NCBI RefSeq assembly: GCF_003790525.1
Contig: NZ_CP033635.1
Strand: one strand, 5' to 3'
DNA from: Escherichia coli
GTDB taxonomy: Bacteria > Pseudomonadota > Gammaproteobacteria > Enterobacterales > Enterobacteriaceae
Length of the DNA: 64,000 nt
Position numbers: made by a program
Shown here: one piece after another, positions 53,201 through 59,200 of the stretch
Layout: each line of letters begins with the position of its first letter
How positions within the stretch are numbered: position 1 is the first letter of the stretch

Positions 53201-56200
53201 AAAGCCACAGTCCCTTACGCTGTTCCGGGCCAAAAGGCTCACAGACCCGCATGTTGCGTAACGGCACGCCGGCACGGTACATCAGGTCATACAGGGGATT
53301 GTAGATAGCTCGGGTTCTGGCGTTATATATCCATATATCACGAGCTTTCCAGTCATACAACGGATACAAGGTGTAATAAAACCCTTCAGGTGACGCTGTG
53401 GTCCAGGGTTTATCATCTGCATATCTCAGTTTGCGCTGAGACACCAGTCCCACAAAGCGATTGAGCGATTCATCAGCACGAACACCAGTCAGTATTGCCA
53501 CTCCACACCGGTTACCGGCAAACCAGGAAGAAAATGCCGGAACAAATTCTTCAAACGTCATGGCATACCGATAAAATGGGAAGTACGACATATCTGTAAT
53601 AGCGTCATCTGGTGGCTGACGAACCCACTCCACACCTGGTTCCCAGCATATCCATTCCGGCTGAAACTGAGAGACACCGTTTACCGTAGTCAGGGGGAGT
53701 GCCACCCAGTAAAAAGTCTCCGTCACATCCCGATACATCTCCCTCATCTTCAGAATGTGTGCAATTGTGCACTGGTACTGAGCTTCCCAGTCAATGAATA
53801 ATACAGAGAAACGACGTTTCTTCCTGCGAGCCACATCGGCCGTAAGATGGAGCAGCACAGTAGAGTCTTTTCCTCCGGAAAAAGACAAACAGACAGAAGA
53901 AAATGTCTCAAACAACCACTCAATACGGTGAACGGCCGCACACAGGACATCCTCACCCGTCAGGATTTTTTTCGCGGAAAAATCATTGTTCATTCCCCTT
54001 CCCCACAGGTTCTAAAGGCTTCAAAGTAATATTGTCCGACAGCACGTTACGCCATTTATAGTACATAGCGGCAGAACCACCTGAATATGGCAAACAATAC
54101 AAACTGATATTACTCATCCTCCCACTCCTTGTTGTGTAATAGAATTCGTTTAATTTGATGATGTTATGTCAGAACGAAAGCTAACAAGATAATTTCTATC
54201 GGTATAGCCAACACACTCGATGGACCCCATATCAGGATAAAACGCTACAGTATAACCGCTGCCATACAGAGCATGGCGGTCACGAACACGGGTACCGCCA
54301 GGGTGATGACATAGTCACGTACGCGTAAACGTAAATTGTTCGCCATAATGATCAATGCATAACAATGAACGCCAGTCTTTATTTACAAAGACGCGCACCG
54401 ACAAATAACTCACTGGTAACATAGCGTACTATTTCGCATCGCTGGCCCCGGACGCGATCAAACAAATAACCAGGTAAGCCTGTGGTCTGCACGGCAGGCA
54501 TATCCGGTAAGCGAACAGTAACTCCCCGAGGCCAAAGAGTGCCCAACAGAGACAAAATGTCCTCAGGCGTATCCGTATTCAACATGGGAAAAATAGGGTA
54601 ATGCCAGAGCAGGCAGAAACTGAGAAACAATCCTGCAGGTGCTCTTAAAAGACAACTGTAAGTTTCTGACTCTTCAGACTGCTTAATCACATCATCATGC
54701 TCCGCCAGCACCGGCTTTTCAATAAACAGCGCGCGATACGGTTCCAGTTCTTTAATCCGTGCTTTCACTATCAACCACTATCAGCACGCTGGTGCAATCG
54801 TGGAAATCAAGACCAGACTCAATCTGATTGCCAAAAGCTTCACGAATAGCCCCAGTTCTTTACAACCATTCAGTTTGAGGGTATCGAAGCCGATTTCGTG
54901 CAGGGTTTTAATACCGTCGATAGCATTTGCCGGACGATCGCCGCCAACCCTACGATAATTTTATGTGCTGTCCATCACTTCTATCAACATCATTTTCTGT
55001 CCTTTGTACTACGACCATTTCCTGTTATTTGAATCAATTCAATATCGCTAGGATAAGATAATTCATAACCGTAAAGTAACCGACGCCAGACAAGAGTTGA
55101 TAACTTAGATGTTATCTGACGCAGAAGAAAAGAGAGAATTTTTGACTTTTATCAAAGACCCATTTGAACTCTTGTTTTCATGTTTTTGCATAATTGAATT
55201 TATTAAATATATTTCTCGTCAAATAACATGTTAAACGTGAGGTATATCTCCATGCTTATCATTAAAACATTAACAAACATTATGATTTAATGATTAAAAC
55301 TAATGGCAATATAAGTCAATTTAATCGCCGCATTTGTTGACAATTGCCAACATCATTTTATAACCTGATATTAAATCCAGCCGGTACATTTTTTCTAATT
55401 ACTTATGAATAAGCAGGAGGATGAGGATGTCTACGAAATTATGGGGCGGACGTTTTGATATGCCAACAAATAAACTCGTTGAACAATATAATGCAACTAT
55501 CACGCTGGAGCAGCGCCTATGCCCCTTTGATATTCAAGGAAGCATAGTTCATGCCACGATGTTAGGACGTCAGGGAATAATCACACAGGATGAAGCCAAT
55601 ACAATTATTAGAGGTTTGAGACAAGTAAGTAAAGAAATTGAAGACGGCCAATTCATTTTCGATACTGTAGATGAAGATATTCATATGGCCATTGAAAGAC
55701 GGATGACTGAAATTATTGGCCCTGTTGGTGGTAAACTCCACACGGGGCGAAGTCGTAATGATCAAACCACTGTTGATTCTAAAATGCATATGCGAGCAAT
55801 TATCCGTGAAATTCAAGAGGATATTACCAACCTGCAAAAAATAATAATTAACAAAGCAGAAAACAATATTAATGTCATCATGCCAGGCTATACTCATTTG
55901 CAAACAGGTCAGCCCATTCTTTTATCTCACTGGATTATGGCATATTACTGGATGTTGCGTCGTGACTGGAATAGGTTTGAAGATCTGTATCAACGGATGG
56001 GAGAATGCCCTTTGGGGGCAGCGGCTCTCGCCGGTACGACATTCCCTATTGATCGTAATTTTACGGCTCGTGAACTTGGTTTTGATAAGCCAACTGAGAA
56101 TAGTATTGATTCTGTCAGTGACCGCGACCATATGGTCGAATTCACCGCGGCAGCAGCGATGTGTTTTATGCATCTAACTCGCCTTTCAGAGGAACTGATT

Positions 56201-59200
56201 TTATTCTCTAGCCAAGACTTTAAATTTATTGAACTTTCTGATGACTTCTGTACAGGATCCAGCATCATGCCGCAGAAAAAGAACCCTGATGTGGCGGAAA
56301 AAATGCGTGGTAAAGGTGGGAGAATGTATGGAAATCTGATGGCCATGCTGACTATTATGAAAGGCATACCGCTAGCGTATAATACAGACATGAGCGAGGA
56401 TAAAGAGCAGGTCTATGACTCAATGGATACTCTACAGGCCAGCTTAAGAATAATGGCACCTATGATCGAAAAAATGGTTATCCTTGCCGAAAATACGCGT
56501 GCAGCAGCCGCTCGAGGATTCTCGAATGCAACAGATATGGCCGATTATCTGGTCCGTAAAGGTATTCCTTTCAGAGAAGCTCACCATATTGTTGGTAGTG
56601 CAGTAAATTACTGTATTAAACATAAAAAAATGTTAGAAGAGCTTACTATGGAAGAATTCTCCACATTTGATAATAAAATAGAAAAAGATATTTATGAAAG
56701 TATTTCTCTGGAGGCTTGCATTAAGGCCAGGATGTCTTATGGTGGAACCGGACCTGATGCTGTCAAAAAACAAATAGAGATTGCAAAATCACTTTTAAAA
56801 TAGTTAAGAATTATAATGTTTAAGATTCCCCGGATATTATATCCGGGAATATCTTTGAGGTTGAAAAATGGACGCTCTATTTTTTATACAACTATTTATT
56901 GTTCTGGCCTGTATTGGAATCGGCGGAAAATACGGCGGAATGGGGCTTGGTGCTGGAGGTGGGTTAGGGGTTGCAATATTGGTTTTGGGCTTTGGACTGA
57001 AACCCTCCTCTCCCTCCATTACTGCTATGTTAATTATTATTTGTGTTATTAGTGCTGTCAGTATATTACAAGCTGTTGGAGGATTAGATTATTTAGTCAG
57101 GGTCGCAGAACGGATACTCCGTAAGAAACCACAGGCGATAACCTTTGTAGCGCCAATATTAACTTCAGTATTTACACTATTTTGTGGGACGACTTATGTC
57201 GCTTTCTCCTTATACCCTGTTATTGCTGAAGTCGCCGCTGAAGCAAAAGTACGTCCAGAACGTGCATTATCTGCAACGGTCATTGCAGCCAGTGTGGCAG
57301 TGGCTGCCAGCCCTATGAGTGCAGCAACTGCCGGGATGCTGGCTATACTTCATGAGTATGCAGGGATCACGTTAGGGCAAATATTATCTATTGCCCTTCC
57401 TTCGTTTTTTATGGCTGCAATTGTTACCAGCTTTTCAGTCTACAAGCGTGGTAAAGAACTGGAAGATGATCCTGAATTTCAAAGGCGTGTTGCAGCAGGT
57501 GAGTATGAGTTCATGCACACCGAACAGAAAAAAGAATATGTCGCTGCACCAGGTGCAAGAAAAGGGGTTGCTATTTTTGCCATAGGAGTCGTGCTGGTCC
57601 TTATTCTCGGATCTTTTACTGAGCTTCTTCCGTCGTGGGATGGAAAAAGATTATCAACCCCAATGGTCATCCAGATGATTATGTTGACTGCAGCTTTATT
57701 GATCATGATTGTGGGGAAAGTTCCAAGCAATAAATTTAACAGTGGCTCTGTGTTCCGTGCTGGTTTGATGGGGGTTGTGGCAATACTTGGTGTTTCGTGG
57801 ATGACTGCAACATTTTTTGATGCTTATCAGGCAGAGCTGATCAATGTTTTTGGCAATCTTGTAAATGATGCGCCTTTGCTGTTTGGCTTTATCGTATTCT
57901 TGTTTTCTCTGGTGATCATGAGCCCGGCTGCGACAGTAGCTGCGATTATGCCATTAGGAGTCACCCTGGGTATTCCTGCACCTTATCTTATTGCAATTTT
58001 TGCCTGTACTTGTGGTGATTTTATTATACCCGGAGCGAATCAGATTGGTTGTGTGGCGTTTGACAGAACTGGTACTACCAGAATTGGGCGCTTTGTTATC
58101 AACCATAGCTATATACGTCCTGGGTTCGTCATGGTCATTTCCCAGGTTGTTTTTGCCTACTTAATTGCGCAGGTTATTCTGTAACATTAAGGAATAAATG
58201 AAGAGGATAACACTGTGGCATGACGAATTAGCCCCCTTCAGCGTTTTTGAGGAAGGGGGATTAAGAAAATATTACACAGCTGTAAGAATACTTCTCTGAT
58301 TACACTAATATAGTGGAAAAAAGGAAGCAGAAGATAGTTGAAGCCAGAACGGTAATCAGACCGGGTAACATATAACTGTGATTTACTACATACTTGCCAA
58401 CTCTGGTTGTTCCTGTTCTGTCAAACGCCACGCAAGCAATTTGTGCACCACCAGGAATAATGAATGATCCGCACGTTACCGGAAGCAAAGCTATGAGCGT
58501 CTCAGTCGAATATCCCATTAATACGCCAGCAGGAAATAATGCCACAGCAGTTGCTGCGGGACTGTAAATCACAGCAGAAAGAACAAACACAATCACACCG
58601 AATATAACTGGGTTATGAAAATCATTGAAAGTGTTATTAAATAAATCTTGCCATGCTTCAAAGAAAGAACTCATCATCCATGAAAGACCAAATATGGCAA
58701 CAACTCCAACCAGACCGGCCTTAAAAACGGATCCTGAGTCAAGTTTCGATGGAGAAATCCGACATACCATCATAATGATACATGCTGTAGTCAACATGAT
58801 GATTTGCAATGCTGTTGGAATACTCATCCGTTCTACACCGGCACTGGTATTCCATACCGGACGTAATTCTGGAACAGAGCCTAAAACAACAACCAAAATG
58901 ATCCCAGAAATAAAAATCATCAGGGCTTTCTTCGCTGTTTTAGATATAATACTGATTGTACGTTCCCCAGTTTTTACTGACTCAAATTCACCTTCTGCAA
59001 CTCTGCGTTGAAACTCTGGGTCCGTTTCAAGATCATGGCCCCGTTTATAAACAAACAAACAACCAACAAGACACCCCAAAATAGTTCCCGGTACAGTAAT
59101 CAATAAAATATCTAAAGCAGAAACATGTAATCCGGAAAAGACCGCAATCGTTCCTGTAACGACCGCACTTACTGGGCTCGCTATAAGACCAAAGTTGGCG

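Follow-up and report, generated by a model that had tools for sequence, protein, structure and literature searches.

An accessory ArgH-family lyase gene of Escherichia coli belongs to a Dcu-linked clade spread across distant bacteria

Why does an Escherichia coli chromosome whose housekeeping argH lies in argECBH carry, elsewhere, a second gene of the same family set among transporter genes? The question is raised by a 64,000-nucleotide stretch of E. coli DNA (RefSeq assembly GCF_003790525.1, contig NZ_CP033635.1), referred to here as the window, which is chromosomal, near-identical to SMS-3-5 (NC_010498.1) and situated beside the asn-tRNA/cobUST region. It contains an intact ArgH-family lyase gene (Table 1) that an initial annotation had taken for a probable recruited paralogue with altered substrate or role. 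The lyase proves to be an acquired xenologue carried on a mobile four-gene cassette, and no duplicate of E. coli argH. As to its function, we lean slightly towards the view that it belongs to a mobile, self-contained catabolic module under repressor control, in which an argininosuccinate-like N-succinyl compound is taken up and cleaved by the lyase to give fumarate. Neither an ArgH-like gene linked to Dcu carriers nor a description of the E. coli island was found in the literature searched, in which the lyase subfamily and its module are undescribed.

The lyase product contains all three of the hallmarks on which its first assignment relied, WGGRF, KLHTGRSRNDQ and GSSIMPQKKNPD. The last of these is the GSSxMPxKxN signature loop, and together with the C1 (GRSRNDQ) and C2 (PGYTHLQ) segments it identifies the protein as a member of the aspartase/fumarase superfamily; Pfam domains Lyase_1 and ASL_C2 are annotated on a database protein identical to it. 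Matches to solved structures extend from end to end, the best being the lyases of Thermus thermophilus (2e9f, 457 bits) and E. coli (1tj7, 410 bits), followed by those of Arabidopsis and duck delta-2 crystallin. The product also exceeds the equivalog threshold of the TIGR00838 argH model by a wide margin (614.9 bits against a cut-off of 279.5). However, this score is not discriminating and does not establish function, because two divergent Sutterella paralogues of 500 and 519 residues clear the same cut-off (387 and 400 bits). Translation is likely to begin at the ATG at 55427, since the in-frame ATG at 55421 directly abuts the Shine-Dalgarno sequence; the RefSeq protein WP_000105004.1 has the same start.

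Of 5426 complete E. coli genomes, 5425 have a match to K-12 argH, so that the expected housekeeping copy does exist and the window gene is not the only argH of its host. The lyase gene itself is matched in 147 of the 5426 genomes, six of which hold only part of it, and 147 of its 148 matching records are at least 99% identical. It is, in short, a second, accessory argH-type copy. Some small part of the surrounding 5.7-kb stretch (54800-60500) is matched in 4743 of the 5426 genomes at 90–99% identity and most of that stretch in only 141; the part that is so common is something other than the lyase gene.

The foreign codon usage attributed to the gene holds for arginine and for base composition, and less so for isoleucine. 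AGA and AGG make up 8 of its 27 arginine codons, compared with 12 of 158 in nine flanking core genes (Fisher p=0.003) and 1 of 26 in K-12 argH, whereas the enrichment in ATA (8 of 43 isoleucine codons, against 18 of 205 in the core genes and 0 of 14 in K-12 argH) is a trend only (p=0.09). G+C content (GC) is 40.6%, and GC at third codon positions (GC3) is 35.6%, well apart from the 47.7% pooled over the nine core genes and the 62.4% of K-12 argH. The gene is nonetheless not a paralogue recruited within E. coli. The lyase shares only 43% identity with E. coli ArgH and 90–93% with its closest relatives, which occur in four Citrobacter species, where the copies are again GC-poor (40–44%) amid flanks of 50–55% GC. 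Further relatives are found in Budvicia, Limnobaculum, Anaerosinus, Enterovibrio, Photobacterium and the Campylobacter lari group (74–79% identity), in Helicobacter sp. 15-1451 (71%) and in Parasutterella and Sutterella (65–72%). The ratio dN/dS between the window gene and its Citrobacter orthologues is 0.02–0.03, and the gene is under purifying selection. Taken together, the distance from host ArgH, the closeness to the Citrobacter copies, their low GC and the low dN/dS indicate a selected, horizontally moving xenologue.

The neighbours of the lyase gene are two Dcu-family transporter genes, here named dcu1 and dcu2, and a gene for a GntR regulator with an FCD ligand domain (gntR). As initially noted, the gene sits with transporters, and arginine genes are absent from the cassette. 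The dcu1 gene is co-oriented with the lyase gene and begins 64 bp 3′ of it; the GC-rich hairpin between them has no T tail and so reads as an intercistronic element, not as a clear-cut terminator. Dcu1 and Dcu2 share 51% identity with each other and only 35–37% with K-12 DcuA and DcuB, and thus form a branch of their own within the Dcu family. In the window strain dcu2 is frameshifted after about 30 codons by contraction of a C run (C5 at 59525-59529, C6 in SMS-3-5), whereas SMS-3-5 encodes an intact protein of 438 residues that starts MMLFVIQ. The GntR/FCD regulator is presumed to be the repressor of the cassette.

This arrangement recurs far from E. coli. One genome per species was scanned and each locus scored, and the open reading frames of 19 loci of the lyase clade were clustered; hosts of the clade include Citrobacter, Budvicia, Vibrionaceae, the Campylobacter lari group, Sutterellaceae and Negativicutes. 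The first five foreign loci inspected (Budvicia, Anaerosinus, Campylobacter, Photobacterium and a Sutterellaceae metagenome-assembled genome) all have a DcuA_DcuB-family gene immediately 3′ of the lyase. Over the whole set, in which the lyase gene is present in 19/19 loci, a Dcu carrier gene is found in 17/19, a GntR/FCD regulator gene in 12/19 and an MmgE/PrpD-family gene in 8/19, the last in Sutterellaceae and Campylobacter and not in E. coli. The carriers in the 17 loci are homologues of dcu1 (49–94% identity) that lie downstream of the lyase, immediately so in all but one (L029). Linked loci span Enterobacterales, Vibrionaceae, Campylobacter, Sutterellaceae and Negativicutes, that is, at least four phyla or classes. 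By comparison, none of about 58 ordinary argH loci (at most 58% identity) has an adjacent Dcu gene, the nearest being 6 kb off in Sutterella contig L032. The full set of lyase, dcu1, dcu2 and gntR is common to E. coli, Citrobacter, Budvicia and Anaerosinus, and dcu2 orthologues occur in the same cassette in these three genera other than E. coli and in some Sutterellaceae. The lyase–Dcu pair thereby shows the adjacency, co-orientation and conservation across taxa that define modules of the AspA–DcuA type, and the association with arg genes and ArgR control expected of arginine biosynthesis is replaced, in E. coli as in the other taxa, by two dcu genes, gntR and a GntR-type operator. The genomic context, with a pairing conserved across phyla, accordingly bears out the earlier suggestion of a role outside arginine biosynthesis.

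A palindrome-like site, TTGTYGACRA, is common to the promoter regions of the clade and has the T-GT-N-AC-A form typical of FadR/GntR operators. It matches exactly twice in the window, at TTGTTGACAA upstream of the lyase and at TTGTTGACGA in the divergent dcu2/gntR region. Two matches are not in themselves unusual, being reached by 17 of 100 shuffles; it is their placement, both in cassette promoter regions, that is informative. A further 20 loci, from Citrobacter, Budvicia, Anaerosinus and Sutterellaceae, have the motif about 90–107 bp ahead of the lyase gene (L002, L003 and L012 represent one and the same Budvicia site), and related sites of TTGTTAA type occupy the dcu2-upstream position in Citrobacter. 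No match was seen upstream of argH in the ordinary argH loci examined, where two stray matches lie elsewhere (L050 and L063). Since the placement of these predicted operators is shared across loci, the cassette looks like a repressor-controlled regulon kept across phyla.

Does the protein itself bear marks of a different task? Alignments were made of 115 clade proteins with four solved lyases, and of the window lyase with 150 diverse sequences, each representing a 50%-identity cluster; residues are numbered as in duck delta-2 crystallin. S114, R115, N116, T161, H162, S283, K289, N291, E296 and K331 are identical in the window lyase and all 115 clade members, S284 is likewise invariant in the clade, and Y323 is kept in 108/115 and replaced by F in 7/115. 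Judged from these alignments, the catalytic and fumarate-side residues have been retained throughout the clade.

A different picture emerges elsewhere in the protein, where a systematic scan detected 12 positions that are near-invariant in ordinary lyases yet replaced and fixed in the clade. At position 33, D in 140/145 ordinary lyases becomes E in 113/115 clade members, and at position 29, S (138/143) gives way to T in 88/115, with S in 20/115. V or I at position 119 (140/150) is replaced by T (101/115), K or R at position 325 (143/150) by T (111/115), and Q at position 328 (147/150) by S, a residue found there in 111/115 clade members and in 0/150 ordinary lyases. Position 297, L in 98% of a canonical set of 131 sequences, is K in 100% of the clade. 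The window lyase carries the clade residue at all six positions; its signature residues are T26, E30, T116, T162, G163, K294, T322 and S325 in the numbering of the 460-residue open frame (subtract 2 for the 458-residue product). The combined signature occurs in 0/150 representative lyases and is present in every locus at 65% identity or above. R/K165T was tried as a further specificity marker and rejected, the position being variable in ordinary lyases. In part of the clade the WGGRF hallmark is itself altered, reading R-S-G-R-F in 50/115 members (N terminus, residues 8-9 of the window lyase), while W is found in 119 of the 132 ordinary lyases that have a residue there.

S29, D33 and K325 are reportedly among the active-site residues mutated in a study of duck delta-2 crystallin. 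In goose delta-crystallin K323, the equivalent of K325, lies in the active site and forms a hydrogen bond with E294 (duck E296; PMC2779060), and for this reason the coupled L297K/K325T change, which looks compensatory, may relocate the lysine instead of removing it. Overall, the leaving-group (arginine) side of the pocket appears to have been remodelled and then strictly conserved, with the fumarate-making chemistry apparently intact. The altered substrate proposed at the outset is thus plausible: six near-invariant positions are replaced clade-wide, but the catalytic and fumarate-binding set is kept and several of the changes are conservative.

The clade is monophyletic in 99 of 100 bootstraps of a neighbour-joining tree. 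Three intermediate forms, with E33 or Q33 and with L297, K325 and Q328 retained, join it in 100/100, and Deferribacteres ArgH is its sister group in 88/100. The possibility that the clade is plain 'Epsilonproteobacterial ArgH' was rejected, as zero Campylobacter jejuni or C. coli proteins occur in the top 120 matches (at least 63% identity).

How does the module compare with systems already described? Argininosuccinate lyase (ArgH/ASL, EC 4.3.2.1; delta-2 crystallin) has the fold and length of the window lyase and shares with it SRND, GYTH, the GSSIMPQKKNPD loop, E296, Y323 and K331. The clade differs from it as a side branch distinguished by S29T, D33E, V119T, L297K, K/R325T and Q328S, and in being accessory and mobile, with a Dcu gene 3′ almost always and a GntR-type operator 5′. 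Similar in organization are AspA–DcuA and FumB–DcuB of E. coli, in which, according to a bioRxiv report on lyase–Dcu 'C4-dicarboxylate metabolons' for fumarate respiration (10.1101/2021.03.01.433382), the gene for an enzyme of the aspartase/fumarase superfamily or otherwise forming fumarate lies beside a Dcu carrier gene and is co-transcribed with it, the imported precursor being converted to fumarate for respiration and succinate leaving the cell. In the window, by contrast, the enzyme is of ArgH type and neither an aspartase nor a fumarase, the carriers are the distant Dcu1 and Dcu2, and control is apparently exerted by a GntR/FCD repressor and not by DcuSR. EDDS lyase (PDB 6g3d) and the C-N lyase of Agrobacterium tumefaciens BY6 are ArgH-related enzymes acting on synthetic or natural aminopolycarboxylates, which free fumarate from N-(1,2-dicarboxyethyl) amines, and the MmgE/PrpD-linked clade loci recall the iminodisuccinate epimerase plus C-N lyase pathway of BY6. 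The one MmgE/PrpD protein tested (L007) has the IDS epimerase 2hp0 as its best solved relative (123.5 bits), level with IRG1/cis-aconitate decarboxylase (122.9 bits). The window lyase scores 222 bits against EDDS lyase 6g3d and 457 bits against 2e9f, which places it much closer to true ASLs, and the E. coli cassette has no epimerase-like gene; it does not belong with the EDDS/iminodisuccinate-type C-N lyases.

The catabolic module to which we lean would work as follows. The regulator would repress the two promoters through the TTGTYGACRA operators until a ligand appears. A Dcu-family carrier would then bring in a compound of N-(1,2-dicarboxyethyl) ('N-succinyl') type, with succinate as the most plausible counter-substrate, and the ArgH-type lyase would cleave its C-N bond by the normal chemistry of the superfamily, yielding fumarate and a free amine or guanidine; the fumarate could serve as an anaerobic electron acceptor, in a putative link to fumarate respiration, or as a carbon source. 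By analogy with the known metabolons, the carrier is expected to bring in the lyase substrate and to export succinate or fumarate. The substrate is probably argininosuccinate-like in size, and within such a module we modestly favour a close analogue over argininosuccinate itself, because the replaced residues line the leaving-group side of the pocket. Elsewhere the E. coli island carries extra ansB, DcuA-like, AspA-like, pepT, dcuC and isoaspartyl-peptidase genes, all with functions that supply fumarate or aspartate, and this content fits a fumarate-supply theme.

Several observations weigh against this reading. The Dcu carriers characterised so far are known to transport only C4-dicarboxylates and aspartate, so that uptake of a bulkier, N-substituted aspartate would be a new activity. 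Argininosuccinate is the only natural substrate that can be named, the lyase exceeds the argH model cut-off by far, and its catalytic residues are canonical without exception. Of the substitutions, D33E and S29T are conservative, and L297K possibly compensates for K325T; activity on argininosuccinate could consequently be retained. Among full-length clade loci, two epsilonproteobacterial ones, Campylobacter volucris (L014) and Helicobacter sp. 15-1451 (L020), lack an adjacent Dcu gene, and in such carrier-less genomes the lyase could be the sole ArgH. In the window strain, moreover, dcu2 is broken. Finally, of S29, D33 and K325, reportedly all active-site residues, K325 is the one supported by the goose delta-crystallin study (PMC2779060). 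The gene 3′ of the Helicobacter lyase was considered as a divergent Dcu gene and rejected; it encodes a glycosyltransferase.

Taking these points into account, the lyase might simply be an isozyme of ordinary argininosuccinate lyase that came with the island and is redundant in biosynthesis, with Dcu only recycling the fumarate by-product or importing aspartate for ArgG. The TIGR00838 score and the conserved catalytic residues would then be as expected, as would the Helicobacter clade member, which has no Dcu gene and lies near an argD-like gene. We regard this as unlikely: E. coli already has argH, the argH model also accepts the divergent Sutterella paralogues, and argG and all other arg genes are missing from the cassette at every Enterobacterales, Negativicutes and Sutterellaceae locus examined, the argD-like gene of Helicobacter being the only arg gene near a clade lyase in the loci examined. 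Nor would a redundant isozyme be expected to have residues near-invariant over 150 diverse lyases replaced clade-wide, or to possess its own FCD-type regulator and operator, which are not obviously those of ArgR. Quite unlikely, in our estimation, is a reaction run in reverse, in which imported fumarate and arginine would give argininosuccinate and ArgG, working backwards, would yield citrulline, aspartate and ATP, an energy-conserving arginine catabolism for fumarate-rich anaerobes. No locus has a linked argG, AspA would regenerate fumarate and make a dedicated carrier unneeded, and the clade-wide pocket substitutions would be left unexplained. The reaction is nonetheless reversible and PMC4108060 describes its reversal upon fumarate accumulation, a Dcu carrier could supply the fumarate, and in a chicken-caecum proteomics study Sutterella is proposed to turn arginine into argininosuccinate and citrulline through ASL and ASS (PMC11204068); that study is silent on which of the ArgH-family paralogues of Sutterella was detected.

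It is also conceivable, and to our mind very unlikely, that the E. coli cassette is decaying island cargo without current function. Besides the dcu2 frameshift, this would account for the pseudogenes around it (a TonB-dependent receptor, an IbrB-like gene, and clbP and thioesterase fragments) and for the genomes in which the lyase gene is incomplete. Against it stand the intact lyase, dcu1 and gntR genes, the intact dcu2 of SMS-3-5, the retention of both operator sites, the near-uniform identity among E. coli records and the low dN/dS against Citrobacter.

Enteric bacteria respire fumarate on aspartate, asparagine and malate, and this ability is recognised as a factor in their colonisation. 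Extending the catabolic-module reading to the whole clade, we tentatively entertain, at somewhat below even chances, that its members cleave the C-N bond of a natural N-(1,2-dicarboxyethyl) metabolite not yet recognised as a bacterial nutrient, imported by a new Dcu subfamily and providing a 'pro-fumarate' route to fumarate respiration in gut anaerobes (Sutterellaceae, Campylobacter and Negativicutes) and a few E. coli and Citrobacter lineages. The metabolite could be an analogue of argininosuccinate or some other 'succinylated' amine or guanidine, of host, dietary or microbial origin. If so, thousands of database 'argH' entries would be misannotated and the widely used argH 'equivalog' model would over-annotate; the carrier would be the first of the Dcu family for cargo beyond a simple C4-dicarboxylate or aspartate; and the mobile module would add a nutrient niche in a minority E. 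coli lineage, whose cassette-bearing isolates here are of human, chicken and dog origin, and in the abundant gut Sutterellaceae. With one enzyme, a carrier, a repressor and a defined operator, the module is a directly testable system.

Table 1. Features of the cassette and of related regions. Positions refer to the window unless another locus is named.
Feature	Position	Strand	Remarks
amn (AMP nucleosidase), codon 49	37385-37387		nonsense change CAA to TAA relative to SMS-3-5
Decayed region upstream of cassette	49588-54960
Operator-like site TTGTTGACAA (predicted)	55334..55343	+	84 bp upstream of lyase start
Candidate -35, TTGACA	55337-55342	+	overlaps TTGTTGACAA; putative, read from sequence
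Candidate -10, TATAAC	55359-55364	+	16-nt spacer after candidate -35; putative, read from sequence
Shine-Dalgarno AGGAGG	55415..55420	+	serves ATG at 55427, 6 nt downstream
Lyase open frame	55421-56803	+	460 aa from ATG 55421
ArgH-family (aspartase/fumarase superfamily) lyase gene, Dcu-linked subfamily	55427..56803	+	intact, 458 aa
GC-rich hairpin CCCGGATATTATATCCGGG	56829..56847	+	between lyase and dcu1 genes
dcu1, Dcu-family anaerobic C4-dicarboxylate-type transporter	56868..58184	+	438 aa; NCBIfam PRK09412, 460 bits
dcu2, second Dcu-family transporter	58300..59615	-	frameshifted in window strain
Second operator-like site TTGTTGACGA (predicted)	59628..59637	-	just upstream of dcu2 start, dcu2/gntR divergent region
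gntR, GntR/FadR-family regulator with FCD ligand domain	59770..60426	+	218 aa; profile matches and RefSeq annotation
AT-rich gap	60427-61405		980 bp
DcuR-like response regulator	61405-62130	+	57% to K-12 DcuR; GC 34%
Further genes of the island, within the window	62724-63770	-	island continues beyond
Further genes of the island, beyond the window	L001 27926-38477
Block after lyase–Dcu pair, Campylobacter lari group	L005 11579-17282
Genes of the Sutterella sp. block	L032 3870-5375	-
	L032 8001-9392	+
	L032 9520-11082	-
	L032 15362-16678	-

Beyond the cassette, the DcuR-like response regulator gene has no partner sensor-kinase gene, and a remnant of the DcuS kinase was sought by tblastn in the AT-rich gap that precedes it; none was found. 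The island genes that lie at 62724-63770 and continue beyond the window in L001 comprise a second ansB, genes for a DcuA-like carrier (55% to DcuA) and an AspA-like lyase (54% to AspA), pepT, dcuC and a gene for an isoaspartyl peptidase/asparaginase. Upstream of the cassette, the decayed region has a TonB-dependent receptor gene broken by a frameshift and an IbrB-like gene interrupted by a stop codon; a PAPS-reductase-like (IbrA-like) gene is intact there, and gene fragments bear the annotations thioesterase, ClbP (colibactin peptidase) and galactonate dehydratase. The nonsense change in amn is one of only 3 mismatches with SMS-3-5 in 20 kb.

In other hosts, the lyase–Dcu pair of the Campylobacter lari group is followed by genes for RidA, DcuC, a cystathionine-beta-lyase-like PLP enzyme and an MmgE/PrpD-family protein, and the same block has a second fumarate-lyase-superfamily gene, the best match of which is XcbD/adenylosuccinate-lyase-like. 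Sutterella sp. contig L032 holds three ArgH-family genes, together with glutamate formimidoyltransferase and Dcu carrier genes, within 13 kb. The two longer of these paralogues are those that clear the TIGR00838 cut-off, in spite of a divergent YNKDLQEDK segment, and the presence of three paralogues suggests that ArgH-like lyases radiated in Sutterellaceae.

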